A DNA stretch of 64,000 nt from Candidatus Azobacteroides sp. (GCA_009787405.1 WRGA01000120.1:1165-65164); one strand, 5' to 3'. Positions 10,907 to 58,325 are shown, numbered from the stretch's first letter. Notes: generated by a model not told the origin, from the letters alone. Made by a program: numbers and translations.

Positions 10907-10922
10907 AATCAAATAATTTTAA

Positions 10923-24690: not shown

Positions 24691-24895
24691 AAAATTTCTT
24701 TTCAAACTCTTAAAAAATATTTTTTGTCAAAAAGAAGAGTATAAACAGGTAATGATATAGAAACGAGCAAACTGCTTTTGCTTGCTGTGTTCTTCCATTG
24801 TTCCAAATAACTTGTGACAAAGGTGAATTATTCCGGAAATTAACAAGATATGCCTTATGTATTAAGAAAAACCGGAAAAATTAAATGCTTTGCAT

Positions 24896-25342: not shown

Positions 25343-26606
25343 ATTGGCAATGAAACGGATAGAGATCATTTTCAACGAGTTTGACAATGTCTACATATCC
25401 TTTTCCGGCGGTAAAGACAGCAGTGTAATGCTGAACCTTTGCATACAATACATAAGAAATAATAACCCGGAAAGAAAAATCGGCGTTTTTCATTTGGATT
25501 ACGAGGTGCAATACAACGAAACCGTTCAATATGTTGACCGTGTATTTCAAATGAATCCCGACATCATTGAAGTGTATCGCATCTGTGTGCCTTTCAAAGT
25601 AAGCACTTGTACTTCAATGTACCAAACATTTTGGCGGCCATGGGACGAGGCATGCAAAAATTTTTGGGTACGCGAGCTTCCTCCCGGCAGTTATACAAAA
25701 GAAGATTTTCCTTTTTATACCGAGGATATGTGGGATTATGATTTTCAAATCCTTTTTTCCCAATGGTATCACCGGTTGAAAAAAGCGAAAAAAACCTGTT
25801 GTCTGGTAGGCATACGGACACAGGAAAGCCTTCATCGCTGGCAAACAGTGCACAGCAACAAAAGATGTAACATGTATCGCTATTTAAAATGGACGCGAAA
25901 GCTATCCGACAATGTTTATAATGCGTATGTAATTTACGATTGGCTCACAACAGATATTTGGGTGGCGAATGCTCGTTTCGTATGGGATTATAACCGCTTA
26001 TATGATCTTTATTACAAAGCAGGCGTTCCGTTGGATAAGCAACGTGTGGCCAGTCCGTTTATATCGGAAGCGCAGGAAAGTTTATTGCTCTATCGCGCGA
26101 TCGACCCTGATATGTGGGGAAAAATGATATGCCGGGTGAATGGAGTGAACTTTACGGCAATTTACGGAAATACAAGCGTCGTTGCCCGAAAGAAGGTCAG
26201 GCTCCCGCCGGAGCACACGTGGGAAAGTTATATGCATTTCCTTTTATCTACTCTGCCGGAATCAACTCGTTTGAACTATTTGCAAAAATTATCCGTAAGC
26301 ATCAATTTCTGGCGCAATAAAGGAGGGTGCCTGTCTGAAGAAACGATTGAAAAGCTGCGTGCTTGCGGTATTGAGATTGAAGTATTAAATCATTCAAACT
26401 ATAAAACGGCTAAGCGTCCGGTTAAAATGGAATATCAGGATGATATAGATCTTCCGGACTTTAAAGACCTCCCGACTTTCAAAAGAATGTGTATCTGTAT
26501 TCTTAAAAATGATCATTTATGCAAGTATATGGGATTTGCCATGACAAAAAAAGAAATTGAGAATAGAAAACGAATCATGGATTTTTACCGGAATGTATAT
26601 AAATGA
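25323..26606 (+). CDS. PP-loop ATP-pyrophosphatase / PAPS-reductase-family protein with a long C-terminal extension (IbrA-like, DUF3440-type)
   Basis: SFSGGKDSSVML PP-loop, VGIRTQES, YDWLTTDIW, and a C-terminal YNRLYDLYYKAGVPLDKQRVASPF region as in IbrA-type proteins. Confidence 0.75.
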   Translation: MKKNVYELAMKRIEIIFNEFDNVYISFSGGKDSSVMLNLCIQYIRNNNPERKIGVFHLDYEVQYNETVQYVDRVFQMNPDIIEVYRICVPFKVSTCTSMYQTFWRPWDEACKNFWVRELPPGSYTKEDFPFYTEDMWDYDFQILFSQWYHRLKKAKKTCCLVGIRTQESLHRWQTVHSNKRCNMYRYLKWTRKLSDNVYNAYVIYDWLTTDIWVANARFVWDYNRLYDLYYKAGVPLDKQRVASPFISEAQESLLLYRAIDPDMWGKMICRVNGVNFTAIYGNTSVVARKKVRLPPEHTWESYMHFLLSTLPESTRLNYLQKLSVSINFWRNKGGCLSEETIEKLRACGIEIEVLNHSNYKTAKRPVKMEYQDDIDLPDFKDLPTFKRMCICILKNDHLCKYMGFAMTKKEIENRKRIMDFYRNVYK

Positions 26607-27115
26607 ACCGTACAGAACCGCACACAAGTCCTGTTTATAATATAAGGGCAATACCGGTAGAAAAAATACGGGCGAACGCATATAACCCGAATGTTGTAGC
26701 ACCCCCCGAACTTAAACTGCTGGAACTGTCGATTTGGGAGGATGGTTATACGATGCCCTGCGTTTGTTATTATCTCCCCGAAGAGGATGTATATGAACTT
26801 GTTGACGGATTTCACCGGTATTTGGTTATGAAAACATCGGTGCGTATTTATGAACGGGAAAAAGGGTTATTGCCCGTAACGTTGATAGATAAAGACCTGT
26901 CGAACCGTATGGCCTCAACCATCAGGCACAATCGCGCTCGCGGAACCCACAGCATCGAACTGATGACTAACATTGTAGCCGAACTCAAAAAGGCGGGAAT
27001 GAGCGATGAGTGGGTCATAAAAAATATCGGCATGGATAAAGATGAATTACTCCGATTCAAACAAATTTCGGGCTTGGCGGAATTATTTGCCGATAAAGAT
27101 TTCAGCATACCGTAA
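26603..27115 (+). CDS. ParB/Srx-like N-terminal domain protein (IbrB-like)
   Basis: IRANAYNPNVV...LLELSIWEDGYTMP...VDGFHRY...IRHNRARG. ATGA overlap with the preceding gene. Confidence 0.7.
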   Translation: MNRTEPHTSPVYNIRAIPVEKIRANAYNPNVVAPPELKLLELSIWEDGYTMPCVCYYLPEEDVYELVDGFHRYLVMKTSVRIYEREKGLLPVTLIDKDLSNRMASTIRHNRARGTHSIELMTNIVAELKKAGMSDEWVIKNIGMDKDELLRFKQISGLAELFADKDFSIP

Positions 27116-31115: not shown

Positions 31116-31293
31116 TAAGTATGTCGAAAAAAATAGTTTATATTTTAAACGCCAAGTCACAAAAACAGAAAGACACGAAGTTTAAATTCTTTACGGCTTT
31201 GTGTCTTCGCATCTTTGCATTTAAAATAGTAGATATTAAATCCTGTCATGTTCTTAAAAATCAAAAGTTTTAATTCTTAATTTTAAAAGTCTT

Positions 31294-31863
31294 ATGATTG
31301 AAAATCTGGTTAAATTAGTTGAACAGTATGCCGGTGATGCTGTCGTAAACAACAAGGCAATTCCTGATGAAAGGAACAGCGCGGTCATCAATGAAACGGC
31401 ATCAAGTATTATGACGAGTTTGCAGGGAATGGCGAGCGGCGGACAGTTGGAACAAATTTTGGCGATGTTTACCGGTAAAGGAGGGGACGGAAGCAATACC
31501 CTTACTCAAAATATTCAAAGTAATGTAGTGTCATCCTTGATGAATAAATTCGGCATCAGTAATTCCATTGCTCAAGGTGTTGCGTCACAATTGGTTCCCA
31601 CGGTTTTGAGCGCCTTGACCAAAAACACCAAGGATCCCAATAATCAGGCGTTTGGCATTAATTCTATTCTTTCTTCCATTACGGGAGGCAAAACGGACGG
31701 AATCGATGTTCAGGGATTGCTCGATAAATTTGCCGGCGGCAGCGACGGTAAGTTCGATTTGAGTGATGTGATGAATTTTCTCGGAAAAGGAAAAGGAAGC
31801 GGTAATTCACAAGGTAATAACGGCGGCGGAATATTAGGAGCATTAGGTAATCTCTTTAAATGA
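31294..31863 (+). CDS. Hypothetical protein with a Gly/Asn-rich C-terminus
   Basis: 189-aa ORF with codon usage like its neighbours. ATGA overlap with the next gene. No motif recognised. Confidence 0.5.
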   Translation: MIENLVKLVEQYAGDAVVNNKAIPDERNSAVINETASSIMTSLQGMASGGQLEQILAMFTGKGGDGSNTLTQNIQSNVVSSLMNKFGISNSIAQGVASQLVPTVLSALTKNTKDPNNQAFGINSILSSITGGKTDGIDVQGLLDKFAGGSDGKFDLSDVMNFLGKGKGSGNSQGNNGGGILGALGNLFK

Positions 31864-32645
31864 AATATGCACTGATTACCGGAGCAACAAGCGGCATAGG
31901 ATATGAATCAGCTTGTATCGCGGCTCAAAAACATATCAATCTGGCATTGATCGGAAGAAATACATCAAAACTTGAACAGCTGAAAACAGAATGGGAGAGG
32001 GAATATTCCATAAATGTCAAAATCATCACCTGCGATTTGTCTGAAGCAAATGCCGTTGAGTACATTACAGAAACCTTGAACACCGCCGGCTTTCGTCCCG
32101 ATGTTTTAATCAATAATGCAGGATTCGGGCTTTTCGGAAAATTTGAAGATACCGATATCCGGAAAGAAACCGATATGCTGCAGGTGAATATCGTCGCTTT
32201 AACCCGACTGACCAAGGTTATTTTCCGTCAAATGGCGGAGCAAGGTTACGGATTTATCTTAAATCTTGCTTCGGTGGCTGGATTTATGCCCGGGCCGTTA
32301 ATGAGTGTCTATTATGCCTCCAAAGCATACGTTTTGTCTTTTTCGCAAGCATTAGCTGAAGAAGCAAAAGGTACGGGGGTCGGTGTCACTGCATTATGTC
32401 CCGGGCCGACTGATAGTAATTTTGTGAACAATGCCGGATTAAATTCGTCCATGCTGTTCAAAAGTTTCGGAAAATTGCCGTCATCGCGGGAAGTAGCCGA
32501 ATTCGGATTCAAAAGCATGGAAAAGAAAAAAACGGTGGCGATACATGGAACCGTCAACCGCTTGATGATATCATTCGTTCGTTTCCTGCCCCGTAAAATG
32601 GTTACACGCATGGTGCATTATGTACAGCGTCCGACATCACCTTAA
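31860..32645 (+). CDS. Short-chain dehydrogenase/reductase (SDR) family oxidoreductase
   Basis: TGATSGIG cofactor motif, NNAG, and catalytic YYASK. Confidence 0.88.
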   Translation: MKYALITGATSGIGYESACIAAQKHINLALIGRNTSKLEQLKTEWEREYSINVKIITCDLSEANAVEYITETLNTAGFRPDVLINNAGFGLFGKFEDTDIRKETDMLQVNIVALTRLTKVIFRQMAEQGYGFILNLASVAGFMPGPLMSVYYASKAYVLSFSQALAEEAKGTGVGVTALCPGPTDSNFVNNAGLNSSMLFKSFGKLPSSREVAEFGFKSMEKKKTVAIHGTVNRLMISFVRFLPRKMVTRMVHYVQRPTSP

Positions 32646-32660
32646 ATAGAAATGATAAGA

Positions 32661-33293
32661 TTATTCCGACTGATACTTCCCGTCGATCCAATCGAAAGAA
32701 ATACTTTCCAGCAAACAGGATTTTAATTTTTCAAACTCTTCTTTGTTCAAATATTGACCGATCGAATACGTTGCCGTAAGTTTCAGGTTATCTTTATTCA
32801 ATGCCAGCTTAATCGGATGCATATCCAATGATTCGATCTTATCGGAGCATGAATCCGTCGGATTGCTTTTGAAAAATGCCGATTCGGTTATAGGAGGAAA
32901 ATAGCTGTTTTTCAATGATTTCCAATCAACTGTATAAAAGGAAATGTCACTGTCACATGCCGGAGCACAACCGGTATTGACCAAACACAATATATTATAA
33001 TATTCATTGATCGGAAGCATTTTAATTTCGATTGAATTTCCCGTCGAAGTCTGCAAAAACAAATAATCGTCGCTTAATTCTTTCAATTCCGATTGTCCTC
33101 CCAAATTATTCCGGACAATCGCATTTTTATTCTCATCCGCCCAAAAATCGATCAATGTCGTCCGTAAATCTTTATCCAACGTTTGCACCAATGAATCGGG
33201 CATCCGGACAAATATATCCGACATTTTTTGCGAATATCCCGCACATCCTCCCCAAAAAGAGATCAACACCAAAACCGCCAATTGTTTCTTCAT
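32661..33293 (-). CDS. Hypothetical exported protein (possibly DUF3256-like)
   Basis: Signal-like MKKQLAVLVLISFWGGCAG. 210 aa. No catalytic motif. Confidence 0.5.
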   Translation of the reverse strand: MKKQLAVLVLISFWGGCAGYSQKMSDIFVRMPDSLVQTLDKDLRTTLIDFWADENKNAIVRNNLGGQSELKELSDDYLFLQTSTGNSIEIKMLPINEYYNILCLVNTGCAPACDSDISFYTVDWKSLKNSYFPPITESAFFKSNPTDSCSDKIESLDMHPIKLALNKDNLKLTATYSIGQYLNKEEFEKLKSCLLESISFDWIDGKYQSE

Positions 33294-33462
33294 ATTTTTG
33301 TATTATTGACCGATTAAAATTCGGTCGTATTTTTATTGATTTGATATTTATTTAGTTTGTTATATTTCTAACCGGTCATTTTTCAAAACGTACCTCCTTC
33401 GGCCTACCGGCTATCGGGCAATCCGTAGGTGTGTTGCCGGCTTTAAAAAATTATACACCTTT

Positions 33463-34734
33463 TTATCCGAAGTCATCAAACATCAACATATCTTCCGGAA
33501 CGCCTATGCTGTCGAGCATTTCTTCCACGGCTTTGGCCATCGGCCCCGGACCGCACATGTAATATTCAATGTCTTCGGGCGCTTCATGGTTTTTCAAATA
33601 ATTGTCGTACAACACTTGATGGATGAACCCGACATAACCGTTCCAATGGTCTTCGGGACGAGGCTCGGACAAAGCGATTTGAAAAGTGAAATTGGAATAT
33701 TCTTTTTCCAGCTCGCGAAAATCGTTTTCGTAAAAAATTTCGTTTTCGGATCGGGCTCCATACCAATAACTGATTTTCCGGTCACGTATATTTAATGTGG
33801 TCAATAAATGCATGATGTGGGAACGAAGCGGAGCCATTCCCGCACCGCCGCCGATGTACAGCATTTCGGACGCGGAATCCAATATCGGATGAAAATCTCC
33901 GTAAGGACCCGAAACAGTAACTTTATCTCCGGGTTTGCAGCCAAAAAGATAAGAAGAACATATTCCCGGTTTGACCTTCGCCCAATCTCCGGTCGATTTG
34001 TCAAACGGCGGAGTCGCAATGCGGATGTTCAACATGATGATATTTCCTTCTGCCGGATGATTAGCCATCGAATAAGCACGAAACGTCTCTTCTTCATTGG
34101 AGCAGGTCAATTTCCACAGGTTGAATTTGTCCCATTCCGATTTAAACCGATCGTCAACTTCGATATCGCTGAATTTCATCGAGTATTCGGGTACATCAAT
34201 CTGAATGTAACTTCCAGATATAAAATCGAGCGTTTCTCCTTCGGGCAGTTTCACCACAAATTCTTTGATAAAAGAGGCCACATTATGATTGGATACGACT
34301 TCGCATACCCATTTTTTGATTCCGAGAATTTCCCGCGGGATTTCCAGTTTCAAATCATTTTTTATTTTTACCTGACATCCGAGTCGCCAATGGTTTTGAA
34401 TTTCTTTTCGGGTAAAAAATCCGGTCTCGGTCGGTAAAATACTTCCGCCGCCGTCAAGCACCCGACATTTGCACATTCCGCAGGTTCCGCCGCCGCCGCA
34501 GGCCGAAGGCAAAAAGATTTGATTATTCCCCAATGTCGTTAATATATTTCCTCCCGGAGAAGTGGTCAATTCCTTTTCTTCATTAATGACAATTTTTACA
34601 TTTCCCTGAGGAAGCAGCTTTTGCTTGGCATACAGCAACACCATGACCAACACCATGGTCACCATTAAAAAAACAGTTATGCCGGCTCCGGCGGTCAATA
34701 TTTCTTTTGAATCCAATAACAACATGTTTTTCAA
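33463..34734 (-). CDS. nqrF: Na+-translocating NADH:quinone oxidoreductase subunit F
   Basis: N-terminal TM, 2Fe-2S motif [15 protein letters not shown] motif RAYSMAN, NAD-binding GGGAGMAP. Confidence 0.93.
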
Positions 34735-34741
34735 TATTTTA

Positions 34742-35707
34742 TTATAAAATTCTCACCCATTTTTTATTGACGATCATCAATATTTTAGTCCCGATAATCG
34801 AAAGAACCGCAGCCATCAAAAAAATATACAACGGCCTCGAGGATATCATATGGAAACAATCGATCAGAAGTATAAACATCGGATGGATGAAATATATACC
34901 GGAAGACAAATCTGCAAGATTCTTACTCTTCCCTGTTTTTTTATGCTTCACATTCCAAATGAAAATCAAAGGACACAAAAAGAATAACGATAAAAACATA
35001 TCGGTACCTGAGATGGATAACCCTATGGTATTATACAAATACACTTCAGCCGGTAAAAGACATAAAAAAAGAACCGTCAAAATGACCCAAATCGTTTGAT
35101 TGTAGAGTTGTGTAATTTTACCTTCATATTGTCGTACCAAAAAACCAAGCACAAAAAAGGGATACCCGAAAAATAAAAAGTTTCTGTATGGAAAATTCCA
35201 CGATAAAACCAATTTGACACCCGAAGGAACTACATCCCATACTTTGGCAATTTCTAATCCCAACCCGATGAGGTATAAAACAAACGCACAAACAATGAAG
35301 GTGTATTTTCCCAAAAAACGGAATTTATTCAAAAAAAGAAAAACCAAAACACCGCCTATCAAAGCAGGTAAATACCATAAGTGGTTATAACCGATCAATA
35401 ATGTCAAAAAAAAGCGTTTGATTTCAAAAGGCGTCGATACGTTAAAATAGAAAGGCAGATAAAGAATCATCCAAATCACATACAACGATACAATATGCTT
35501 CAAGTATTTGATGATGCCTTTTTTATTCTCATAGACGTTGTAAAAATAATATCCGCTGATCACCAAAAATAATGGAACGGCTATGCGGGTGAAACCTCCG
35601 ACCTCGTTTCCGGCATCTCCGAATTCATAACACAAGTTTGCATGTATGGCAATGATCAAAAAACTTAAAACAACTCTTAACCGGTCAATCCGGACATTTC
35701 TCTCCAT
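34742..35707 (-). CDS. Acyltransferase-3 family membrane protein (OafA/YrhL-like O-acyltransferase)
   Basis: 321 aa, about 10 TM. N-terminal RIDRLRVVLSFLIIAIHA is typical of Acyl_transf_3. Lies between nqrE and nqrF with 26-nt and 7-nt gaps. Confidence 0.7.
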   Translation of the reverse strand: MERNVRIDRLRVVLSFLIIAIHANLCYEFGDAGNEVGGFTRIAVPLFLVISGYYFYNVYENKKGIIKYLKHIVSLYVIWMILYLPFYFNVSTPFEIKRFFLTLLIGYNHLWYLPALIGGVLVFLFLNKFRFLGKYTFIVCAFVLYLIGLGLEIAKVWDVVPSGVKLVLSWNFPYRNFLFFGYPFFVLGFLVRQYEGKITQLYNQTIWVILTVLFLCLLPAEVYLYNTIGLSISGTDMFLSLFFLCPLIFIWNVKHKKTGKSKNLADLSSGIYFIHPMFILLIDCFHMISSRPLYIFLMAAVLSIIGTKILMIVNKKWVRIL

Positions 35708-35733
35708 TTTCTGTTACAATTTTTACGTTTCTA

Positions 35734-36351
35734 TTATAATTTTATTCCTAAAAAACTCATGAATGCGATTCCCATTAATCCGGTAATGATAAACGTTATC
35801 CCCAAACCTCTCAACGGTTTGGGCACATCGGAATACTGCAACTTTTCACGAATGGCGGCAATCGCAACAATCGCCAGCAGCCATCCGATTCCCGATCCCA
35901 ATGAGTAAGACACGGCTTCTCCGATACCGGCAAAGTTTTTTTCCTGCATAAACAGTGATCCTCCCAAAATGGCACAGTTTACGGCAATCAACGGCAAAAA
36001 TATTCCCAATGACTGATACAATGCCGGCGAAAATTTTTCGATGACCATTTCCACCAATTGCACAATGGAAGCTATGACAGCGATAAAAATGATGAAACTT
36101 AAAAAACTTAAATCCAAATCGGCAAAGGATTTTCCCAACCAAGCCAATGCTCCGGCTTTAAGAACGTATGTTTCCAACAAATAATTGACGGGCAATGTCA
36201 CAACCAATACAAAGACAACCGCAATTCCCAATCCTCCCGCGGTTTTTACATTTTTAGAGACGGCCAGATAGGAACACATTCCCAAAAAATAAGCAAAAAC
36301 CATATTGTCGATAAAAATCGACTTGATAAATATGTTCAATATATTTTCCAT
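35734..36351 (-). CDS. nqrE: Na+-NQR subunit E
   Basis: 205-aa polytopic protein. [12 protein letters not shown] and AVNCAILG motifs of the NqrE/RnfA family. Confidence 0.9.
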
Positions 36352-36379
36352 TCGTCACATCAAGGTAAAAATCCGATAA

Positions 36380-37009
36380 TCAATTTTCCTGCAAATCCTT
36401 ATTTCTTGCACGATGCACCCAAATGATGCAGGCAACAACAATCAACGCCATCGGAGGAAGAATCATCAATCCGTTGTTCATATACCCTGCATCGTAAAGC
36501 GCTTGAGGAATCACCCGGTAGCCCAATAACGTTCCCGAACCCAACAATTCTCTGAAAAAAGCAACGATAACCAAAATCATTCCGTACCCCAATCCGTTGC
36601 CGACTCCGTCCAAAAAAGCGGGCCATGGTTTATTTCCCAATGCGAAAGCTTCCAAACGTCCCATCAAAATACAGTTGGTGATAATCAATCCGACAAACAC
36701 AGACAATTGCTTGCTGACATCGTAGGCATACGCTTTCAAAATTTCGTTGACAATGGTGACCAATGTTGCGGCCACCACTAATTGCACGATGATCCGGATG
36801 CGTCCCGGAATGGTATTGCGCAATAACGATATGATCACATTGGAAAAAGCCACGACTACGACAACGGATGCCGACATGACCAACGCCGGCTCCAATTTTG
36901 CCGTAACCGCCAACGCCGAACAGATTCCCAATACCAGCACAATGACCGGATTGGATTTGCTGAACGGATTGATCAACACTTTTTTATTTCCGGTTGATAA
37001 TAAACCCAT
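36380..37009 (-). CDS. nqrD: Na+-NQR subunit D
   Basis: 209 aa. NPVIVLVLGICSALAVT and ITNCILMGR motifs of the NqrD/RnfE family. Confidence 0.9.
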   Translation of the reverse strand: MGLLSTGNKKVLINPFSKSNPVIVLVLGICSALAVTAKLEPALVMSASVVVVVAFSNVIISLLRNTIPGRIRIIVQLVVAATLVTIVNEILKAYAYDVSKQLSVFVGLIITNCILMGRLEAFALGNKPWPAFLDGVGNGLGYGMILVIVAFFRELLGSGTLLGYRVIPQALYDAGYMNNGLMILPPMALIVVACIIWVHRARNKDLQEN

Positions 37010-37079
37010 AGTTATTTACGATTTGACAATTTACAAATTACAATTACAATTTTATAATTGCATCTCCTGTAAGGGAGTT

Positions 37080-38168
37080 TTATCTCAGGTCGATGTTGTT
37101 TTCGATGGCGATGCTTAATTCATCGGCATTGATGTCTGTTTCCTGAATATCATCATTATGCCTTTCCAATCGAATCATTTTGCCTTGTTTAAGGTAGTCT
37201 TCTCCGTTAATGATTTTTCCGAATGCCTGAATGCAATCATAGCTTTGGGTGGTGGCGAAAACCTGAACATTCAATTCTTTCGATAATTTAAAAACGATTT
37301 CCCACAATTTTTCAAGAACGGCATAATGAAAACCGGTTTCAAATTCATCAATCAGCAAAAATCCGTTTTTTGCTTCGAATAATCCGTTGAAGACATTCAA
37401 AACACGCACGATACCGATTCCCATACTTTCAGGGGAAACAAGGCTTTGTTGATTCTGCAACTTCAAAACGATGTTTCCTTTTTCCGGAAGGCTGTTATCC
37501 GGTTGAAAAGTGACTTCGGCAATATTTTCGTCCAACATCTTTAACGTTTCCGACAAAACGTTTTTTTTATCCGATTCGACAATATAATCCCACGCGGCTT
37601 TACTTATTCCGCCGATTGTATTTTGAGCGGCAATGGATCTGCAATTTACGTCAAAATGTAATTTTTGAGTCGTTAAAATATGCTCAATCTCTTTTTTCGA
37701 ATAAATAACGGCTTGATCGTCGTTCCCGATTTTTATACCGGTTTTATGCTGAACAACCGGCTTTTCATCCGAAAGAAGTTCCGATTTCACGCCCGATTCG
37801 TCTTCTGTAAAAGCAACTAATTTGAGAAATAAAAGGTGCGCTTCGATCGATCCTTTTTTCAAGGTTTTAATCAACACCCGTTTTTTATCGGACAAATTCT
37901 CCGTCGTTCTGTTTGAGAAAAAGGAAAGAAACGATTTTTTATAATCGATGTCGGAACTTCCTTTTTTGAGATAAATATCTTTCCGACTTTTCAATACGTC
38001 GAATAAATAGATCAAGTTCATTTGAGAAGCATATATACCAATCACTTCCAGCAAAGAGGTCTTTCCGACATTGTTTTTGCCCGTGATTAAATTCACCCGC
38101 TCCAAAGAGATCATCGATATATTTTTCAATATCTTGTAATTTCGTATCAAAAGTTTATCCAGCATCAT
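37080..38168 (-). CDS. AAA_21/ABC-type ATPase (SMC/OLD-like ATPase head, no fused nuclease)
   Basis: Walker A GKNNVGKTS, Walker B LLIDEFETGFH, downstream QVFATTQS. 362 aa. 6 nt after the nqrC stop and 70 nt before the nqrD start. Confidence 0.75.
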   Translation of the reverse strand: MMLDKLLIRNYKILKNISMISLERVNLITGKNNVGKTSLLEVIGIYASQMNLIYLFDVLKSRKDIYLKKGSSDIDYKKSFLSFFSNRTTENLSDKKRVLIKTLKKGSIEAHLLFLKLVAFTEDESGVKSELLSDEKPVVQHKTGIKIGNDDQAVIYSKKEIEHILTTQKLHFDVNCRSIAAQNTIGGISKAAWDYIVESDKKNVLSETLKMLDENIAEVTFQPDNSLPEKGNIVLKLQNQQSLVSPESMGIGIVRVLNVFNGLFEAKNGFLLIDEFETGFHYAVLEKLWEIVFKLSKELNVQVFATTQSYDCIQAFGKIINGEDYLKQGKMIRLERHNDDIQETDINADELSIAIENNIDLR

Positions 38169-38174
38169 ACAATT

Positions 38175-38873
38175 CTATTTTTTCAGCAAAAAGTTTTCGT
38201 AAGCACTCAAACAATTTTTCAACATTTCATTTACCCCTTGGCTGGTAATGGTTCCTCCCGAAATGCCGTCGACATAATCCATGTCATTTTTCGATTGTCC
38301 GGCTTTTACAACGGCGATAGACGTGAATTTACCGTTGCGGGCGATCTGTTTGTCGTAAAACTCCTTTTGAAAATGTTCCGTATCAATTTCGGCGCCCAAT
38401 CCGGGTGTTTCGCCTTTGTGTCCGAATGTTGCGCCGAAAACGGTGATTTTATCGTCATTCAAGGCGATATACCCCCAGACAGGCCCCCATAAACCCGTTC
38501 CGCGAAGCGGAATCACATATTTTTTCGCTCCTTCCGCCATGGCTTCATAAACGGGAAGTTTTCTTTCCGCCACCGGTTTTTTGATTTCTTTTTCGATGTT
38601 TTGATCTACGGTAAAGGCATCTTCTCCGTTTTTTTTATTTCCGTCATACGAAAGCACATATGAATCGGTGATCGTTTTTTGATAGATTTCCTCGGCATCC
38701 TTTGCCGTGGCTGCGATACGGAGCGCCCGAAGAATTTGTTCTTTCTTGTCGATTTCCGCATTTTTTTCCTGCCTTCCGCGCAATCCTTCGGCCGTAAAAG
38801 CCAGCAGCACGGCGACAACAATCACCATTACAGCCGCATATATAATGGTATACGTATTTCCTTCTTTGTTCAT
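38175..38873 (-). CDS. nqrC: Na+-NQR subunit C
   Basis: N-terminal TM. FMN attachment region DGISGGTITSQGV. Confidence 0.9.
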   Translation of the reverse strand: MNKEGNTYTIIYAAVMVIVVAVLLAFTAEGLRGRQEKNAEIDKKEQILRALRIAATAKDAEEIYQKTITDSYVLSYDGNKKNGEDAFTVDQNIEKEIKKPVAERKLPVYEAMAEGAKKYVIPLRGTGLWGPVWGYIALNDDKITVFGATFGHKGETPGLGAEIDTEHFQKEFYDKQIARNGKFTSIAVVKAGQSKNDMDYVDGISGGTITSQGVNEMLKNCLSAYENFLLKK

Positions 38874-38883
38874 TGTCGTTTTT

Positions 38884-40113
38884 TTAATCGCTTTTCAAAC
38901 CGGTTGTATTTTCTTTTTTCACCCGCATTCTTTTCAATCGTCGCTTGATATTGGCCTGAACCACAAAATAATCAATTACCGGGGCAAACATGTTCATCAA
39001 TAAAATGGCCAACATCATTCCTTCGGGATAACCGGGATTTATCACGCGGATGAGTATTCCGAACAATCCGATTAAAAAGCCGTATATGTATTTTCCGCTA
39101 ACGGTTCTTGCCGAAGTCACCGGATCCGTGGCCATAAACACGGCGCCGAAAGCAAATCCGCCCAACAATAAATGTTCATAAGCGGAAATATTCATGGCAG
39201 CTGTGGTTCCGACGGCATTTAAAATTGTACCCATACAAAATCCGCCCACAAAAACGGAAATCATGATTCTCCAATCGGCAATTCCGGTAATGATCAAAAA
39301 TACGGCACCCAATAATATGGCGAATTTGGAAGTTTCTCCGATCGAACCGGGAATAAACCCCCAAAACAAATCCCAAGCCGACAACGGATTTCCCAGAATA
39401 TCCGTCAATTGAACGGTGTGAGCAGTTGCCGTGGCCGCCTGTCCCAAAGGTGTCGCTCCGGAAAATCCGTCCACGGGTGTTCCGGCTCCCAATCCAAATG
39501 TTTCGCTCAATCGAATGAATACCCGGTCTCCCGACATTTTCGAAGGATAAGAAAAAAATAAAAATGCCCGCGTTACCAAGGCGACATTGAAAATATTCAT
39601 GCCGGTTCCGCCAAACACTTCTTTGGCAAAAATAACGGCAAAAGCGGTTGCCACGGCAATCATCCACAACGGAGTATCCACCGGCACAATCATGGGAATC
39701 AACATGCCCGACACCAGAAATCCTTCCTGAATTTCATGCTTGCGCCATTGAGCCGCCATAAATTCAATACTCAACCCGACTCCGTATGAAACGATCAATT
39801 GAGGCAACACAGATAAAAATCCGAACAAGAATATCTCCCGGTATCCGACACTCAGCTGCCCGATTGCCAGATAATGTTGATAACCGACATTATACATTCC
39901 GAACAAAAGTGCGGGAAACAAGGCAATGACCACCATAAACATGGTTCGCTTGGTGTCGATGCTGTCGTGAATGTGTACGCCGCTTCCGGATGTTTTATTT
40001 GGAACGAACAGAAAGGTTTCCAACCCTTCAAAAACCGATTGAAAGGCCCCGAATCTTCCGCCGGGTTCAAAATCCGGTTTTAGTTTGTCCAATAAATTTC
40101 TTAAAAATTTCAT
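38884..40113 (-). CDS. nqrB: Na+-NQR subunit B
   Basis: 409-aa polytopic protein. FMN attachment region DGFSGATPLG. Typical N-terminus MKFLRNLLDKLKP. Confidence 0.92.
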   Translation of the reverse strand: MKFLRNLLDKLKPDFEPGGRFGAFQSVFEGLETFLFVPNKTSGSGVHIHDSIDTKRTMFMVVIALFPALLFGMYNVGYQHYLAIGQLSVGYREIFLFGFLSVLPQLIVSYGVGLSIEFMAAQWRKHEIQEGFLVSGMLIPMIVPVDTPLWMIAVATAFAVIFAKEVFGGTGMNIFNVALVTRAFLFFSYPSKMSGDRVFIRLSETFGLGAGTPVDGFSGATPLGQAATATAHTVQLTDILGNPLSAWDLFWGFIPGSIGETSKFAILLGAVFLIITGIADWRIMISVFVGGFCMGTILNAVGTTAAMNISAYEHLLLGGFAFGAVFMATDPVTSARTVSGKYIYGFLIGLFGILIRVINPGYPEGMMLAILLMNMFAPVIDYFVVQANIKRRLKRMRVKKENTTGLKSD

Positions 40114-40865
40114 TATTTATCCGTGTCATTTTCTTTCCAGACTTGCAATAAAAGGTTTGCCAAGTTCGGATTGATATAATGAATTTTTCCTGTATTGATC
40201 GAGATGCCTCCGACGGCAACGTCAAACGCTCCGTTGTTGACGGCGGTTCCCATATATCCGCCGAAAGGAGCGAATCCCCATCCCGACAAGGTCAAATAGC
40301 TTGCCGACTTTTCAGGGCTTCCCGTAATGGTGACGCTCGTTCCGGTAAATCCGCCTTTGCTGATTTCCGCTTTTGCTCCGATGTCGTTTTCATATCGAAT
40401 ATACGTTCTGTTTTTCACTGCTGTCTTTTTTCCGTTGAATTTAAAGAATGTTTTTCCGTCGCCGTCTTTATCGTTGCCGAAAATATAAATCACATTTTTC
40501 TCCTTCAATTTGTTATTTTCATTCAGATAATCTTGCAAAGCAAAATAAGTACTTAATGTCAAAGACGACTTTTTTGTACCTTGCATATATTCTTCCACCC
40601 GAAAACAATTTGCGCCCGATTTTCCGGCCTCTTCCCGTATAGCTTCGAATAAACGGTCGATACCTTTGTCATCCGTGACTCTTAGGGTTGCCACAAAAAA
40701 AACTCGTCCGCTGTCTTGCGGTTCAGCGAATAAATATTCAAATGCTTGCTGTTCTTTCAGATTAATGAATTCATTCTTCGCCAAAACCTCAATTTCCTGT
40801 GAAAAAAGTGATCCGGACAAAAGAGCAAAAACAAATATAAAAATAAAAAACACCTTTCGATTCAT
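40113..40865 (-). CDS. Hypothetical exported protein
   Basis: Signal peptide MNRKVFFIFIFVFALLSGSLFSQ. 250 aa. Its stop overlaps the nqrB start (TAATG). Confidence 0.6.
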   Translation of the reverse strand: MNRKVFFIFIFVFALLSGSLFSQEIEVLAKNEFINLKEQQAFEYLFAEPQDSGRVFFVATLRVTDDKGIDRLFEAIREEAGKSGANCFRVEEYMQGTKKSSLTLSTYFALQDYLNENNKLKEKNVIYIFGNDKDGDGKTFFKFNGKKTAVKNRTYIRYENDIGAKAEISKGGFTGTSVTITGSPEKSASYLTLSGWGFAPFGGYMGTAVNNGAFDVAVGGISINTGKIHYINPNLANLLLQVWKENDTDK

Positions 40866-40914
40866 ACTACACCACCACTATTAATAAAAAATATACCATC
40901 CATCCCCACAACTC

Positions 40915-42072
40915 TTAATTCTTAACTCTTAACTTATCTTCCAAAATCCCGATCACCTTATCAACATACGCACTCCACGTAAAATGCTCGACGGATTGAT
41001 GAGAACGGATACACATTTGAATGTAATCGGGCGACTGTAATCCCGATTTGATCTGTCCGGCCAATTCCTCCGCCGATTGACCGTCTGAATAATAACCGAA
41101 ATCAATGTTTTTTCCGAATGTTTCCGTAAATTCTCCGTAAGGAGTCGTGATCACGGGATTATAAAAATACATAGCTTCGATCATGGAAGAAAACGCACCC
41201 CATTTCGGAGTGGTATTCACGATAAAACGGGCGTTTTGAAGCAATGTATAATATAAATTCCGCCGGTTATCGTCTGCTTTGTCTAAATATCCGTAACAAC
41301 AGACATTATCTGGAAGCGATTCAAAATCCGAATCCTTCATCCCGATGATGTGAACTTTGACATCCGGATAGTCATTCTTCAGCAAAGATACCGCTTTAAT
41401 CAATTGTTCGGCGCCTTCCAGATAAGCGTTTTTTCTTCCGATAAAAAGCAACTCCTTCGAATTTCTTTTTTTTTCGAGAATTTCCTTTTCCGAAACGAGA
41501 AGCAACGAATTTACCACATTTCCCAAATACCTGATTTCGGGATTCGAATAATTTTCCTTCATGTATCCGGCAATACCCGGAAACAAAGGAAGCACCAAAT
41601 CAGCCTTTTCAATCTGCCGGCGATCCCTTTTAATGCATGACCGCTCGAAACAATCGGGTTGCCGGTTCAAAAAATGTTTGATATAATAATCGTATGTCCA
41701 ATCGCCGAACATCACGGTCGGTTTATCGGTTAAGCCGACCGACGAAAAACTGAGCGTGAGAAACAGAAACACATCCGAATTTTTATATGTGCGAACGGCT
41801 TTCTTGACGCGCTTTCTCACGTTTGAATAATGCAACCGGGAACGGAAATACGTGTACGACGTATCTTTACTCATCCGCTTGACAAACGGGTCGAAAAACT
41901 TGTTGTACACACGGCACAATTGCGCCGATTCACTGATATCGACACGATTTACTTTTATTCCTTTACCGAGAAGGGTTTCGGTAAAAAAATACGGCACATT
42001 CGACCAAGTGCTTAATTTTGACGAATCGCCGTCTGTAAATACCGTGACTTCTTTTATTTTCGATGATTCCAT
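40915..42072 (-). CDS. Glycosyltransferase (GT-B, family 1/4-like)
   Basis: The C-terminal half has a GT1-type pattern (HIIGMKD...; FSSMIEAMYFYNPVITTPYGEF). First ATG at 42072 (the track start 42129 is TTG overlapping the nqrA stop). Confidence 0.65.
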   Translation of the reverse strand: MESSKIKEVTVFTDGDSSKLSTWSNVPYFFTETLLGKGIKVNRVDISESAQLCRVYNKFFDPFVKRMSKDTSYTYFRSRLHYSNVRKRVKKAVRTYKNSDVFLFLTLSFSSVGLTDKPTVMFGDWTYDYYIKHFLNRQPDCFERSCIKRDRRQIEKADLVLPLFPGIAGYMKENYSNPEIRYLGNVVNSLLLVSEKEILEKKRNSKELLFIGRKNAYLEGAEQLIKAVSLLKNDYPDVKVHIIGMKDSDFESLPDNVCCYGYLDKADDNRRNLYYTLLQNARFIVNTTPKWGAFSSMIEAMYFYNPVITTPYGEFTETFGKNIDFGYYSDGQSAEELAGQIKSGLQSPDYIQMCIRSHQSVEHFTWSAYVDKVIGILEDKLRVKN

Positions 42073-42125
42073 TATTCCTTGATTTTCCGTGATGTTTTTG
42101 TTTAATTGTGATTCACGAAATTCGA

Positions 42126-43490
42126 TCAATTCATTTCAACTCTTAATTTATCCAGCCCTTCCCGAATGATCCGCTGAATTTCCAATTTCGATGTGTCGAC
42201 AAATTCGCAAAGCGCAAAATCTTCGGGTGCGACTTCGTAAATTCCCAAATTCTCCATTTTTTCGATATCGAACGCAATAACGGCTTTGAGCAGAAATTCG
42301 GGCAAAATGTCCATCGGAAATACTTTTTCGTACTCGTCGGACATGATAATTGCCCTTTTCCCGCCTTTAATCCGGGCGTCGATCACATATTCTTTGCTTC
42401 GGTCGAACATGGTGATCAGCCGGGTCATAAAACTGCGGCTCACGCTGTATTTTGTAAATCCCGGACTGATCCACCCGAATAATTCGTTTTTTTCGTCCCC
42501 TTCGGGAATAACCGTTATCTGATTGTCATACGCGCCCAAATAACCGTCCGGTTCGATTCGTTTACCGGTCAATACATTTCCGCTGATATACCGGAGATGT
42601 TTACCCGAAGAAACTTCAAACGCCCCTTCGATATTCGCTCCGACAATCATGTCGCAATATCCTCGTTGCAACATTTCGGAACCGGTTAATGCAACGGTTC
42701 GTGTAAAATCGGCAATGCCTTTATTAAACAATCGTCCGACAAAAAGAACATCCGCGGGATGAATCACCCATACCGTCTCGCCTTTATTCAAAGGAGCGAC
42801 ATGATGGATTTGAATACCGACGTTCCCGGCCGGATGCGGACCTTTAAACAGCTCAATGATCACGTTTTTTGCTTCAAGCAGGGCAGGAGAGGACGTTTCG
42901 GGAGAAATGCCGAGATATACTTTTCCGGCGGTCAGTTTGGCCAAAGCGTCGAGCCCCGTTTGAAAATCTTTTTCCCCGTCCTGCAACACAAAATCAATGT
43001 CGGGAGCCAAAGGAGCGGAATCGAACCCGGAAATAAAAATATCGCGGGGCATATCTTTCGGATCAGCAATGACATCATACGGTCTTTGCTTGATATAAGG
43101 CCAGATTCCCGCATTCAATAAACTTTTTTTGATTTCATCTCCCGAAAGAGACTTTACGTCTTTTATGCCGAAATCTTCATATTCGACCGTAAAATCGGCT
43201 TTTATTTCCAATCGAAGCAATTTCCGTTTTTCACCCCGCAAAATGCTTGAGACTGTACCACTCACCGGAGATACGAACTTGATTTCGGGCTGTTTTTTAT
43301 CGATAAACAACACTGATCCTGCTTTGACGGCATCTCCTTCTTTTACGAGAAGTTTGGGAGGTATGGCATGATAGTCTTCCGGAGTCAACGCATAAATCGA
43401 CGGATGAATTTTTTCCGGTAAGCGTATTCTTTCGGCTTTTCCTTGAAGCCTGATATCCAGCCCTCTTTTTATTTTTATCGGCGTCGTCAT
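42126..43490 (-). CDS. nqrA: Na+-NQR subunit A
   Basis: 454 aa. N-terminus IKIKRGLDIRLQGKA...VKEGDAVKAGSVLF is typical of NqrA. Confidence 0.92.
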   Translation of the reverse strand: MTTPIKIKRGLDIRLQGKAERIRLPEKIHPSIYALTPEDYHAIPPKLLVKEGDAVKAGSVLFIDKKQPEIKFVSPVSGTVSSILRGEKRKLLRLEIKADFTVEYEDFGIKDVKSLSGDEIKKSLLNAGIWPYIKQRPYDVIADPKDMPRDIFISGFDSAPLAPDIDFVLQDGEKDFQTGLDALAKLTAGKVYLGISPETSSPALLEAKNVIIELFKGPHPAGNVGIQIHHVAPLNKGETVWVIHPADVLFVGRLFNKGIADFTRTVALTGSEMLQRGYCDMIVGANIEGAFEVSSGKHLRYISGNVLTGKRIEPDGYLGAYDNQITVIPEGDEKNELFGWISPGFTKYSVSRSFMTRLITMFDRSKEYVIDARIKGGKRAIIMSDEYEKVFPMDILPEFLLKAVIAFDIEKMENLGIYEVAPEDFALCEFVDTSKLEIQRIIREGLDKLRVEMN

Positions 43491-43514
43491 TAATTTACCT
43501 GAAATTTTGTGTTA

Positions 43515-43522
43515 CAAAGATA
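43515..43522 (-). promoter_or_regulatory. Bacteroidetes -7 promoter box (TAnnTTTG) for nqrA
   Basis: The minus strand reads tatctttg, 25-32 nt upstream of the nqrA ATG. Confidence 0.45.
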
Positions 43523-43795
43523 ACGATAAAAGTCAAAAGTTGATGAAACATCAGTTAAGAAAAAGGGTGAAGGGCCATGAAAAGGCTTGTAACCCTTTTA
43601 AATGCGCAATAGATTGTAAGGATTTCGCTCTTGTTCCGCCGGAAATAAAATATTCGGTGGAAATAATGTATTTTGATAATCAATGACGTGCCATAGCTTA
43701 GTGTTCGCCCGACAAATGTAACTTTTTCCTTGAATCACAGTCTTTAAAAAACAAGTTTAATGACCCAAAAAGGTACAACCAATGGATTTTATTGT

Positions 43796-43803
43796 TAATT
43801 TTG
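43796..43803 (+). promoter_or_regulatory. Bacteroidetes -7 promoter box (TAnnTTTG)
   Basis: taattttg, 29 nt upstream of ATG 43832. Confidence 0.4.
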
Positions 43804-43831
43804 TAACATCTTTGTATAAGACATCTTGAAC

Positions 43832-44656
43832 ATGACAAAAAACATTCGGATTTTATTTATTTCTCAAGAAATAACACCTTATCTACCTGAATCAGAAATC
43901 GCAATCATCAGCAGACAATTACCACAAGCCACCCAAGAAAAAGGAAGAGAAATCAGAACATTCATGCCTAAATTCGGTTGTATCAACGAAAGGCGCAATC
44001 AATTGCATGAAGTAATCAGACTGTCGGGTATGAATTTGATCATTGATGATACCGATCATCCGTTGATTATTAAGGTAGCGTCAATTCAGACTGCCCGTAT
44101 GCAGGTTTATTTCATTGATAATGAGGATTATTTCCCGCGCAAATCCATCATCGAAAACGGAGAGGAAACAGATAATTTTTTGGATTTTTTCAATAATGAA
44201 GAACGTTCCATATTTTTCATTCGCGGTGTTTTGGAAACCGTGAAAAAATTACGGTGGACTCCCGACATCGTTCATTGCCACGGTTGGCTTACCGCATTGG
44301 CTCCCCTTTATATTAAAAAAGCTTATAATGACGAACCTTCCTTCAGAAATGCCAAAGTAGTTTATTCCATTTATGAAAAGGCATTCAAAAAGCCTTTTGA
44401 AAAGTCTTTTTCGGAAAAAATGCTGTTGCACGGAATCAAAAAAGACCATCTTTCATCCATCAATAAAATAATTGATTATGAGGCAATAAACAAATTGGCC
44501 ATTGATTTTTCGGATGGTGTCATACAAGGAAGTCAAAATGTTAATAAAGCTTTATCGGATTATGCCGCTCAATCAAAAAAGTTATTTTTGCCCTATCAAG
44601 ATGCCGACAATTACATTGATGCTTATAACGAATTTTACGATCGGGTCGTAATGTAA
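43832..44656 (+). CDS. Glycogen/starch-synthase-like protein (GT5 N-terminal-domain type, short form)
   Basis: RILFISQEITPY...HCHGWLTALAPLYIKK resembles the Glyco_transf_5 N-domain. First ATG at 43832 (the track start is TTG). Confidence 0.6.
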   Translation: MTKNIRILFISQEITPYLPESEIAIISRQLPQATQEKGREIRTFMPKFGCINERRNQLHEVIRLSGMNLIIDDTDHPLIIKVASIQTARMQVYFIDNEDYFPRKSIIENGEETDNFLDFFNNEERSIFFIRGVLETVKKLRWTPDIVHCHGWLTALAPLYIKKAYNDEPSFRNAKVVYSIYEKAFKKPFEKSFSEKMLLHGIKKDHLSSINKIIDYEAINKLAIDFSDGVIQGSQNVNKALSDYAAQSKKLFLPYQDADNYIDAYNEFYDRVVM

Positions 44657-44675
44657 ACTTTGACAAATTAATCCA

Positions 44676-46043
44676 ATGAAAATAAAATCTTTAATTGTAT
44701 CGGTCTGTACAATTGTTCTTCTTTTTTCCATCGCTTGTAACGATGATTTAAGCACGATCGGTTTTAATGTTCAACCGCCGGAAGATAACGTTCCGCTGAA
44801 AATCGATACCATTGCCTTGTCATCGTCTACTTTTAAGGTCGATTCCATTTATGCCAAATCAAACAGCGGATTATTGGGCAACTTCGATGATCCTGTTTTC
44901 GGTTCGTTGAAATCGGATTACATGTGTCAGTTTTATTGTCCGGAAGGAAACTTTTTCAGAGATTCCGTCATCAACAACCAAATCGATTCGATCGATGTGA
45001 TGATTTTTTACCGGACTGCCGCAGGTGATACTTTGGCTCCGATGCAATTGAGCGCCTATAAAGTGAGTCAACCGTTGACAAATAACTTTTACACAAATAT
45101 AAATCCGGATGATTATTGTGATATGTCTTCTCCTCTCGGAACGCAAGCCTATACTGCATCCGGAATCGGTATGAGAGATTCGTTGATTTATTCTTCTTCG
45201 GCCTACACTTCCACGAGTTATAAATATATTCGTATCCGCCTCCCGAAAGCCGTGGGGCAGGATATTTACGACAAATCGAAAACCGACGGTATTTTTGCTT
45301 CTCCGGAAGTCTTCAATAATTATTTTCCCGGAGTATATTTCACCACAACATACGGAACGGGAAATATCATAGAAGTATTAAGCACCAACCTGAATATTTA
45401 TTATACCAAATACAATCGGACAAGCGCCGTTGTCAAAGATACCATATCCACTCTGATTGCCACCAAAGAGATTATTCAAATGAATCATTTCGAAAATTCC
45501 GGCATTGACGATCTTTTGGTACCGAACGAAACAACCGATTATATTAAAACACCTGCCGGAATATTTACCGAAATCGAAATTCCGATGGATGAAATCAATG
45601 CCAAAATTCAGCCTAAAAACGGAAATTTCATCACCAACGGTGTCGGATTTAATGTAAAAGTTTATGCCATGCCCGAAGATGCCGTATATCCATTGAGCGC
45701 ACCTCCTTATATGATGATCATTTTGGCTGATGAATACAAAGATTTCTTCGAAAATTACAAAAGGCCGGTGGATATAAATTCTTTTATCGGAACATATATC
45801 GCCGCATACAACGCTACCGGCTTAGTGTATAAATTCAATAATTTGACGCCGTTGATTAAAAAAATCAATGAAAACGGTTCTTACCAAGGAGGAACGGTCA
45901 AAGCTTATTTGATTCCGGTTTCGATCAATATCGACAGTAACGGGAATGTAAATTCCATCGGACATTACCTGAACCCTTCTGCCGTAAGAATCCGAAAAGA
46001 TAAACAAAATATAAATTTCACGATTATTCACAGTGAATTTTAA
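44676..46043 (+). CDS. Lipoprotein-like protein, DUF4270-like
   Basis: Signal + Cys (LLFSIAC). 455 aa. Its position after the glycogen-synthase-like gene is what I recall for DUF4270 genes in Bacteroidetes. Confidence 0.5.
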   Translation: MKIKSLIVSVCTIVLLFSIACNDDLSTIGFNVQPPEDNVPLKIDTIALSSSTFKVDSIYAKSNSGLLGNFDDPVFGSLKSDYMCQFYCPEGNFFRDSVINNQIDSIDVMIFYRTAAGDTLAPMQLSAYKVSQPLTNNFYTNINPDDYCDMSSPLGTQAYTASGIGMRDSLIYSSSAYTSTSYKYIRIRLPKAVGQDIYDKSKTDGIFASPEVFNNYFPGVYFTTTYGTGNIIEVLSTNLNIYYTKYNRTSAVVKDTISTLIATKEIIQMNHFENSGIDDLLVPNETTDYIKTPAGIFTEIEIPMDEINAKIQPKNGNFITNGVGFNVKVYAMPEDAVYPLSAPPYMMIILADEYKDFFENYKRPVDINSFIGTYIAAYNATGLVYKFNNLTPLIKKINENGSYQGGTVKAYLIPVSINIDSNGNVNSIGHYLNPSAVRIRKDKQNINFTIIHSEF

Positions 46044-57995: not shown

Positions 57996-58073
57996 ATATT
58001 TATAAATTATTTAAATTTTATATTGATACTTTTTGAATATTTTCTCCTTTAACAAAGTCAAAATCAATTTGTC

Positions 58074-58235: not shown

Positions 58236-58317
58236 ATCCCCACTAAAAATACTACCATTTATCCGGTTAAAAATCAATTCGAGTTTCAGAAAGTATCTTG
58301 TTTTGAATATTGTTTTG

Positions 58318-58325
58318 TATCTTTG
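58318..58325 (+). promoter_or_regulatory. Bacteroidetes -7 promoter box (TAnnTTTG)
   Basis: tatctttg, 35 nt upstream of ATG 58360. Confidence 0.4.

Follow-up and report, generated by a model that had tools for sequence, protein, structure and literature searches.

Unrelated genes interleaved with the Na+-NQR operon of a Candidatus Azobacteroides lineage, probably captured stepwise at its internal junctions

In Vibrio cholerae, as in Bacteroides, Parabacteroides and Porphyromonas, the respiratory complex Na+-NQR is encoded by the contiguous operon nqrABCDEF, a gene order of textbook rigidity. According to Price, Arkin and Alm 2006 ('The Life-Cycle of Operons', PMC1480536), new genes confined to a lineage often settle next to native ones and are then expressed from the promoter of the latter; insertions inside existing operons are much rarer than additions at their ends, and an insertion can kill an operon. 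The DNA considered here, a stretch of 64,000 nt from Candidatus Azobacteroides sp. (GCA_009787405.1 WRGA01000120.1:1165-65164) that is called the window throughout, contains an nqr locus in which ten co-oriented minus-strand genes (33463-43490) follow one another in the order nqrA, GT, p250, nqrB, nqrC, ATPase, nqrD, nqrE, AT3, nqrF. GT denotes a GT4-type glycosyltransferase, p250 a predicted exported protein, and AT3 an AT3-family membrane acyltransferase. This locus shares with the canonical operon the same six subunits, their A-B-C-D-E-F order on one strand, the cofactor-binding residues and a single promoter-like box upstream. It differs in that contiguity is lost: four unrelated genes lie at three internal nqr junctions (A/B, C/D and E/F), and in a relative, L091, there are seven at four junctions.

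Phage morons offer a comparison, as they are unrelated extra genes between the co-oriented genes of a tight transcription unit, with a content that varies among relatives. Morons typically come with a promoter and a terminator of their own and are found in phage genomes; the inserts of the window, in contrast, are chromosomal and without detectable signals of their own, and a search for viral-contig relatives of the ATPase, p250 and AT3 found none. The native-plus-new-gene operons of Price et al. (PMC1480536) are similar in having lineage-restricted genes under purifying selection, functionally unrelated neighbours and presumed expression from the native promoter. They differ from the present case, in which at least four to seven internal insertions are found in one operon, with retention at genus level or deeper, and in which the passengers appear to have outlived the host operon in two sub-lineages. 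No prior description of an interrupted nqr operon, or of nqr in Azobacteroides, was found in the literature.

A map of the open reading frames (ORFs) of window 31-46 kb, with genes identified from Pfam and NCBIfam (NqrA-F, Glycos_transf_1, AAA_15/AAA_21 and Acyl_transf_3), bears out the first-pass annotation of this DNA, which had claimed six nqr genes in an interleaved order on the minus strand. Coordinates, order and strand are as claimed, and measurement of the junctions gives the same TAATG overlap between p250 and nqrB and the same gaps of 6, 70, 26 and 7 nt. Overall, the junction spacers run from -1 to 70 nt, and five of the nine are 26 nt or shorter. Misassembly at the junctions, which had been raised as a concern, is excluded by an independent assembly and by two diverged genomes. 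A Logan-pipeline contig (L097, run SRR5248864) is 100% identical to window 31134-45707, a span of 14,574 nt that covers all junctions; a 114.7-kb ENA contig, L081, has the same interleaved order; and L091/L092 (NCBI GCA_031553395.1 and a Logan contig) has the order of the window plus three more inserts. Both L081 and L091 have diverged from the window to synonymous saturation.

The NQR subunits themselves are intact. All six are full length; NqrA, B, D, E and F score above their NCBIfam equivalog cut-offs, and NqrC scores above the TIGR01938 cut-off. Alignment to structure chains indicates that the four Cys of the NqrD/E Fe centre and the Thr of NqrB and NqrC that carries covalent flavin mononucleotide (FMN) are all retained. 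In particular, the FMN-attachment Thr of NqrB (SGAT motif) aligns with T236 of V. cholerae NqrB (chain 9lrr_B, annotated NqrB, 415 aa), the SGGT FMN motif of NqrC is identical to that of the top match, the solved NqrC chain 3lwx, and the Cys of NqrD and NqrE align with V. cholerae C29 and C112 and with C26 and C120, respectively (chains 7xk3_D/7xk3_E were used for NqrD/NqrE). The 2Fe-2S Cys motif of NqrF is present by eye in the translated ORF. Where dS is finite, dN/dS of the nqr genes among the window, L081 and L091 is ~0.02-0.09, a value that is approximate because dS is saturated. As judged from its sequence, the locus is a functional Na+-NQR operon in which every subunit is under strong constraint.

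The interleaved layout is rare. A scan with NqrD, using one genome per species, gave 556 relatives; when the ten window proteins were mapped onto the best 80 of these loci, all from Bacteroidales, 383 nqr-nqr junctions were obtained. As the first-pass annotation had supposed, nqrABCDEF is contiguous elsewhere, in 78 of the 80. Gene-sized gaps (>400 nt) occur at just 2 of the 383 junctions, and in none of the 80 loci is a homologue of GT, the ATPase or AT3 found less than 10 kb from nqr. The first gap is that of the closest relative, a Candidatus Azobacteroides metagenome-assembled genome (MAG) called L001, in which 842 nt between nqrA and nqrB hold a p250 orthologue with 47% identity. The second, in a different Bacteroidales MAG, L078, is a 1109-nt gap at the same junction, occupied by a radical SAM/SPASM gene (357 aa, 6980-8053); the A/B junction may be a recurrent insertion point. 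L078 also carries an Imm33-domain gene after nqrF (12621-13127). The next-largest gaps, up to 379 nt, are at nqrC-nqrD. Such enlarged gaps in Muribaculaceae and Porphyromonadaceae were considered as further insertions and rejected: in L040, the sole locus checked, NqrC (6793-7719) has 308 aa instead of 232, and a C-terminal extension of ~75 aa explains the gap. Gaps of 240-380 nt similar to that of L040 are seen at this junction in L010, L026, L042, L052 and L054.

Set against these contiguous loci, the window and its relatives form a graded series. There are no inserts in the 78 contiguous reference loci; one, p250 at A/B, in L001; four, namely GT and p250 at A/B, the ATPase at C/D and AT3 at E/F, in the window and L081; and seven in L091/L092, which adds a GNAT/YoaP acetyltransferase at A/B and both a DUF6773-like membrane protein and a 224-aa protein at B/C. 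The only pair that is never separated is nqrD-nqrE. A gene for a DUF3256 protein, which marks the syntenic frame and stands outside the operon claim, lies 3' of nqrF in L001, L081 and L091. It is also found directly after p250 in two loci that have no nqr. One of these, L083 (4178-8701), shows the frame DUF4835, FtsX ... DUF3256, with just a small ORF, a PIN gene, GT and p250 between FtsX and DUF3256; the other, L082 (842-3564), reads GT-p250-DUF3256. In two further loci, L084 (8694-11605) and L094 (134-1750), p250 is followed by a TetR gene, and in L084 FtsX is 5' of p250. No nqr genes or remnants were seen at the locus in L082, L083, L084 or L094.

To polarise these nqr-less loci, outgroup synteny was set aside, as the FtsX and DUF3256 flanks are confined to the clade, and a p250 tree rooted with distant homologues was used instead. 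In this tree L082 and L083 are nested inside the group that L091 and window/L081 delimit (bootstrap 84), and L084 groups with L001 (bootstrap 62). Since nqr-less loci are nested among nqr-bearing ones, there would have been two or more deletions of nqr that spared the passengers. Na+-NQR was thus probably lost, at least from this locus, on two separate occasions within the clade.

The inserts are old. Among 5.8 billion clusters, close relatives of the ATPase and AT3 are confined to the two sister loci (52-57%), after which identity falls to ~37-38%. Between the window, L081 and L091, the nqr subunits are 73-94% identical and the inserts 50-73%; the proportion of synonymous differences (pS) is 0.7-0.8, which is saturated, and that of nonsynonymous differences (pN) ranges over 0.03-0.16 in the nqr genes, compared with 0.17-0.31 in the inserts. 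The three genomes have every ORF intact and at full length. (It should be noted that saturation of dS makes dN/dS approximate, so that selection was judged by pN versus pS and ORF integrity.) A pN far below saturated pS, together with intact ORFs, argues that the inserts are functional genes inherited from a common ancestor. As regards base composition, GC at third codon positions (GC3) of the inserts is 0.42-0.47, inside the window background of 0.32-0.54, and the lower total GC of AT3 and the ATPase is due to amino-acid composition. No meaningful direct or inverted repeats flanking the inserts were found, and a Pfam scan gave no integrase or transposase domain at the locus. Recent horizontal transfer, or a genomic island, was ruled out by the background GC3, the lack of flanking repeats and the age of the genes; the inserts are old, vertically inherited and under purifying selection.

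How the inserts are expressed was approached through consensus signals. The first-pass annotation had reported only one TAnnTTTG promoter box. The octamer in question, TATCTTTG, is the sole intergenic match in the operon, but the minus strand has another six matches within coding sequence (35564, 35995, 39295, 39627, 40832 and 41383), and the window as a whole shows no enrichment of the motif (69 found versus 65 expected). The identical octamer stands 22-33 nt 5' of nqrA in the window, L081 (7427-7434), L091 (182-189) and L001, in spacers that have otherwise diverged; the junction spacers of these first three genomes contain no TAnnTTTG at all. Likewise, the terminator-like sites on the coding strand of the window are all within genes and at chance frequency (15 found versus 13.3 expected), none is in a window junction, and the window spacers have no significant structure (z -0.02 to -1.87). 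At the level of consensus evidence, the window thus has the features of a single transcription unit: co-orientation, short spacers and no internal signals. As the passengers of the window lack recognisable promoters and terminators of their own, they are most likely read through from the conserved nqrA promoter, which is the most economical model for a putative co-transcript. In this respect the possibility that the interleaved order is the common arrangement of the clade, with independent signals around each insert, was borne out in its first half only in a narrow sense, the order being common to three diverged genomes within a single small clade, and not in its second, as no independent promoters or terminators are seen in the window.

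The spacers 5' of nqrB reach 122-151 nt in L081 and L091. In L091, long AT-rich inverted repeats (GTTATT/AATAAC-like units) occur in the spacers after nqrA, GNAT, p250 and nqrC, and the resulting hairpins fold far better than shuffled sequences (z -5.6 and -7.2); nothing comparable is present in the window. These hairpins could be terminators, RNA-stabilising elements like repetitive extragenic palindromes (REP), or insertion scars, and L091 transcripts may be attenuated, processed or stabilised at the spacers that contain them. Immediately 5' of the nqrD start codon, the window (37010-37045, minus strand) and L091 (8810-8844) have ~35 conserved nt (GTAATTTGT..CAAAT.GTAAATA.CTATG) that are not shared by L081 or L001; this stretch might serve translation initiation or be an internal signal.

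Taken together, these observations argue for a stepwise capture of passenger genes at nqr junctions, with expression by read-through, a reading to which a probability of about 0.7 is assigned. In a lineage of uncultured Bacteroidales that has the Candidatus Azobacteroides MAG as its nearest named relative, the nqr junctions would have served repeatedly as a landing site for genes in the same orientation. The gene for p250 would have entered between nqrA and nqrB first, an event shared with the Azobacteroides branch; GT at A/B, the ATPase at C/D and AT3 at E/F would have followed in the ancestor of the window, L081 and L091, and three further genes would have been gained by L091. The passengers would have been kept by purifying selection while hitch-hiking on a constitutively needed housekeeping operon. 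Later deletion of nqr in two sub-lineages would have left p250, with or without GT, exactly in place. The suggestion of the first-pass annotation that the operon has repeatedly captured cargo genes is upheld as regards capture, by the graded series of 1, 4 and 7 inserts, the different insert that occupies A/B in L078, vertical inheritance, purifying selection and the lack of internal consensus promoters and terminators; the co-transcription it also proposed is probable.

Several points weigh against this account. L082, L083 and L084 are known as contigs, so that the absence of nqr is established for the locus and not for whole genomes. Promoters and terminators were called as consensus matches, and Bacteroidetes promoters can deviate from TAnnTTTG. 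The junction hairpins of L091 resemble one at a convergent gene end, and may divide or attenuate the operon in that genome. The ATPase and AT3 have been seen, within the clade, only inside nqr operons, and they vanish together with nqr. In addition, a neighbouring operon for a Na+-pumping methylmalonyl-CoA decarboxylase (mmd, window 21-3814) is uninterrupted, from which it follows that this genome does not break up all its operons, and the account gives no reason for nqr as the target.

Some of the same evidence can be read differently, as the death of an operon by insertion, the outcome described by Price et al. (PMC1480536), in which the locus would now comprise several independent transcription units, driven by internal promoters that deviate from the consensus, and genome compaction would account for the tight spacing. 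The hairpins after nqrA, GNAT, p250 and nqrC in L091 could then terminate or process transcripts, the long spacers 5' of nqrB in L081 and L091 would be roomy enough for a promoter, and the conserved end of the ATPase-nqrD spacer could be an internal signal. However, the five window junctions of 26 nt or less, one of them an overlap, leave no room for both a terminator and a promoter; the spacers of three genomes are free of TAnnTTTG, while the box 5' of nqrA is conserved in four; the window junctions have no terminator-like hairpin; and six subunits that need coordinated expression remain very strongly constrained. Such a break-up of the operon is accordingly judged unlikely, and stepwise capture with read-through remains the preferred account. 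The features of the locus are collected in Table 1.

Table 1. Features of the interleaved nqr locus in transcriptional order, with the distance to the next gene of the operon. Positions refer to the window except in the last row.
Feature	Position	Strand	Distance to next gene	Description
Promoter box TATCTTTG	43515..43522	-		candidate Bacteroidetes -7 box, consensus match, 25 nt 5' of nqrA ATG
nqrA	42126..43490	-	53 nt with GT start at ATG 42072 (favoured by homologue alignment); 4-nt overlap with the mechanical TTG start of the GT ORF (42129)	454 aa; NF003761 619 bits, TIGR01936 509 bits; NQRA_N, NQRA_2nd, NQRA_SLBB
GT (insert 1)	40915..42072	-	49 nt	GT4-type glycosyltransferase, 385 aa from ATG 42072; ORF extends to TTG 42129
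p250 (insert 2)	40113..40865	-	1-nt overlap, TAATG	predicted exported protein, 250 aa; probably the oldest insert
nqrB	38884..40113	-	10 nt	409 aa; NF003756 532 bits; start overlaps p250 stop
nqrC	38175..38873	-	6 nt	232 aa; TIGR01938 208 bits
ATPase (insert 3)	37080..38168	-	70 nt	orphan AbiLi/PDC-M38A-type ABC-like ATPase, 362 aa; AAA_15/AAA_21 (Pfam)
nqrD	36380..37009	-	28 nt	209 aa; NF006777 313 bits
nqrE	35734..36351	-	26 nt	205 aa; TIGR01940 314 bits
AT3 (insert 4)	34742..35707	-	7 nt; 16 nt with nqrF ATG at 34725	AT3-family membrane acyltransferase, 321 aa
nqrF	33463..34734	-		423 aa from TTG, 420 aa from ATG 34725; TIGR01941 609 bits; Fer2, FAD_binding_6, NAD_binding_1
DUF3256 gene	32661..33293	-		downstream neighbour, 169-nt spacer after nqrF
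Hairpins of L091	1576-1661, 3618-3685, 4487-4548, 7603-7658, 13795-13875			positions in L091; spacers after nqrA, GNAT, p250 and nqrC, and a convergent gene end

The identity of the inserts bears on whether they serve NQR. GT has a C-terminal Glycos_transf_1 domain (5.9e-12, 45.9 bits against a Pfam gathering cut-off of 26.4) and orthologues that are 69-74% identical in L081, L082, L083 and L091. It is a member of a broad family of ~380-aa proteins (224 full-length representatives at E<1e-30) in which identity declines smoothly over 50-30%, and may be a relocated native-type gene. The p250 protein has no family match in Pfam, NCBIfam or PADLOC. Its family comprises 19 clusters, with an N-terminal signal-like helix and invariant residues F21 and Q23 within a near-conserved FSQ motif. 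An AF2 model (pLDDT 81) shows the signal-like helix, a small alpha/beta N-domain and a beta-rich domain; the N-domain has a weak, marginal fold match to the secreted proteins FvfA, YdgH and SrfN (E 1e-3), whereas the fold search found no match for the beta-rich domain and gave no functional lead. While p250 stands between nqrA and nqrB in L001, L081 and L091, its distant homologues, known from several metagenomes and from a genome of Winogradskyella, lie apart from nqr in every case; a metagenome scan with the p250 alignment returned one 2-kb contig. Because both genes were kept in place after nqr deletion, and because the distant p250 homologues are unlinked to nqr, GT and p250 are not parts of NQR.

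The ATPase is related to AbiL and the PADLOC candidate system PDC-M38, two-gene anti-phage systems of an AAA_15/AAA_21 ATPase and a small partner. It matches PADLOC PDC-M38A (PDLC04611) at 4.8e-69, with residues 2-362 aligned to profile positions 1-383, and AbiLi at 1.4e-46 over its full length, and it keeps Walker A and Walker B. It thus shows full-length homology to the A-component of these systems, but it has neither an adjacent B-component gene nor intact catalytic motifs. In a typical free-standing relative (L093), the ATPase is followed by a DUF3226 partner gene, and the locus is unlinked to nqr; no homologue of that partner is found in the window, L081 or L091, and the ATPase of the window is flanked by nqrC and nqrD. 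Furthermore, the H-loop His is replaced by Gln (ATTHS to ATTQS) and the Asp of the GDG motif is lost (GDG to GxG; GIG in the window) in all three operon-embedded ATPases, and one embedded copy (P0022) has the catalytic Glu replaced by Asn. All 12 free-standing relatives, in contrast, retain the H-loop His, the GDG Asp and the catalytic Glu. The ATPase looks like an orphan that has changed function, and it offers a natural case of a defence-type ATPase that is without its partner and its catalytic histidine, yet is still under selection.

AT3 is a full-length Acyl_transf_3 protein (PF01757; 2.2e-25, 89.9 bits against a cut-off of 31), its residues 5-306 matching profile positions 2-320 of 326. 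Close relatives are found in L081 and L091 only (54-55%); the next, at 38%, are mostly gammaproteobacterial and are named 'surface polysaccharide O-acyltransferase-like' by their sources, and the outside homologue that was examined is not beside nqr. Both AT3 and GT, with full-length domain matches above Pfam thresholds, are thus like the AT3 polysaccharide O-acyltransferases and GT4 glycosyltransferases of surface-glycan loci, but in the window they lie outside any polysaccharide locus and are set between the genes of a respiratory complex.

These properties leave some room for the view, raised by the first-pass annotation, that the inserts serve NQR as lineage-specific factors; on this view the ATPase and AT3, if not all four, would act in its assembly or regulation or as accessories and would owe their place in the operon to that role. 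In the clade these two genes occur only inside nqr operons and are absent where nqr is absent, and an ATPase without its partner, with clade-specific catalytic substitutions and under purifying selection, shows the pattern expected of a changed function. For GT and p250, however, the view fails, as they persist without nqr, and for the ATPase and AT3 it is unsupported: a single nqrB-to-nqrF deletion would have removed both in any case, their nearest outside homologues are unlinked to nqr, and 78 of the 80 related NQR operons, judged complete, have no such factor. In addition, the number of inserts differs between sister genomes (four versus seven), L078 holds a different gene at the same junction, and the four inserts share no biochemical theme tied to NQR. 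A role as NQR factors is therefore considered very unlikely.

A bolder extension of stepwise capture would make the nqr operon a privileged 'gene nursery', with its junctions, nqrA-nqrB above all, as a preferred landing pad on which arriving genes would come to be expressed, at least one passenger exapted into NQR biology, and the L091 hairpins tuning subunit stoichiometry. In such a case the ATPase, with no partner and a degenerate H-loop, may be an ATP-binding, non-hydrolysing assembly or regulatory factor, or AT3 may modify the lipid or quinone-site environment; this proposal has a slim chance of being right. Finally, the total GC of AT3 and the ATPase (0.35-0.37, against 0.40-0.46 for the nqr genes) might have raised the suspicion of faulty assembly or binning, or of a mobile element that inserted recently, but these explanations can be dismissed, given that the SRR5248864 assembly is identical at every junction, two genomes at synonymous saturation have the same order, the GC3 of the inserts is at background, and flanking repeats, integrases and transposases were not found.

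The locus does not present a new respiratory machine; it is a clear natural example of passenger genes inside an essential operon. Despite the rigidity of NQR gene order, four to seven foreign genes have been tolerated over a long evolutionary time, and the series of 0, 1, 4 and 7 inserts, followed by the apparent loss of nqr with passengers left behind, provides an unusually complete record of genes entering, riding and outliving an operon. It also carries a warning about guilt by association, as four genes at operon spacing within a respiratory operon are apparently unrelated to it in function.

The 5' border of the operon differs between the window and its relatives. In the window, nqrA is preceded by a divergent glycogen-synthase-like gene (Glyco_transf_5) and a DUF4270/BamH gene (43826-46043), whereas a co-oriented FtsX/MacB permease gene stands 5' of nqrA or of the locus in L081 (6082-7308), L001 (4403-5632), L083 and L084. 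This is a local rearrangement, yet the TATCTTTG box is retained.

Elsewhere in the window, ~5 kb at 57995-63263 hold few short ORFs (124 and 115 aa), and other ORF-poor gaps are at 4626-5739, 10259-11307 and 23968-24890; these stretches may represent pseudogenes or degraded genes. In the Na+-pumping methylmalonyl-CoA/oxaloacetate decarboxylase operon, the gamma-type subunit (1260-2165) is fused to an N-terminal Lamin Tail Domain. An overlapping gene pair at 25323-27115 encodes a PAPS_reduct and DUF3440 protein (427 aa) and then a weakly ParB_N-like protein (170 aa), and presumably resembles IbrA/IbrB-type pairs; 5' of it is a low-GC ORF of 150 aa that belongs to no family. An IgGFc-binding-like protein of 1289 aa is encoded at 5739-9608. 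A BspA-type leucine-rich repeat fragment is found at 4171-4626, and an LRR_4 gene at 21641-23968 has a 63-nt repeat period, which corresponds to leucine-rich repeats of 21 residues; within this gene TAGATTTG recurs at 22418, 22481, 22544, 22670 and 22733.

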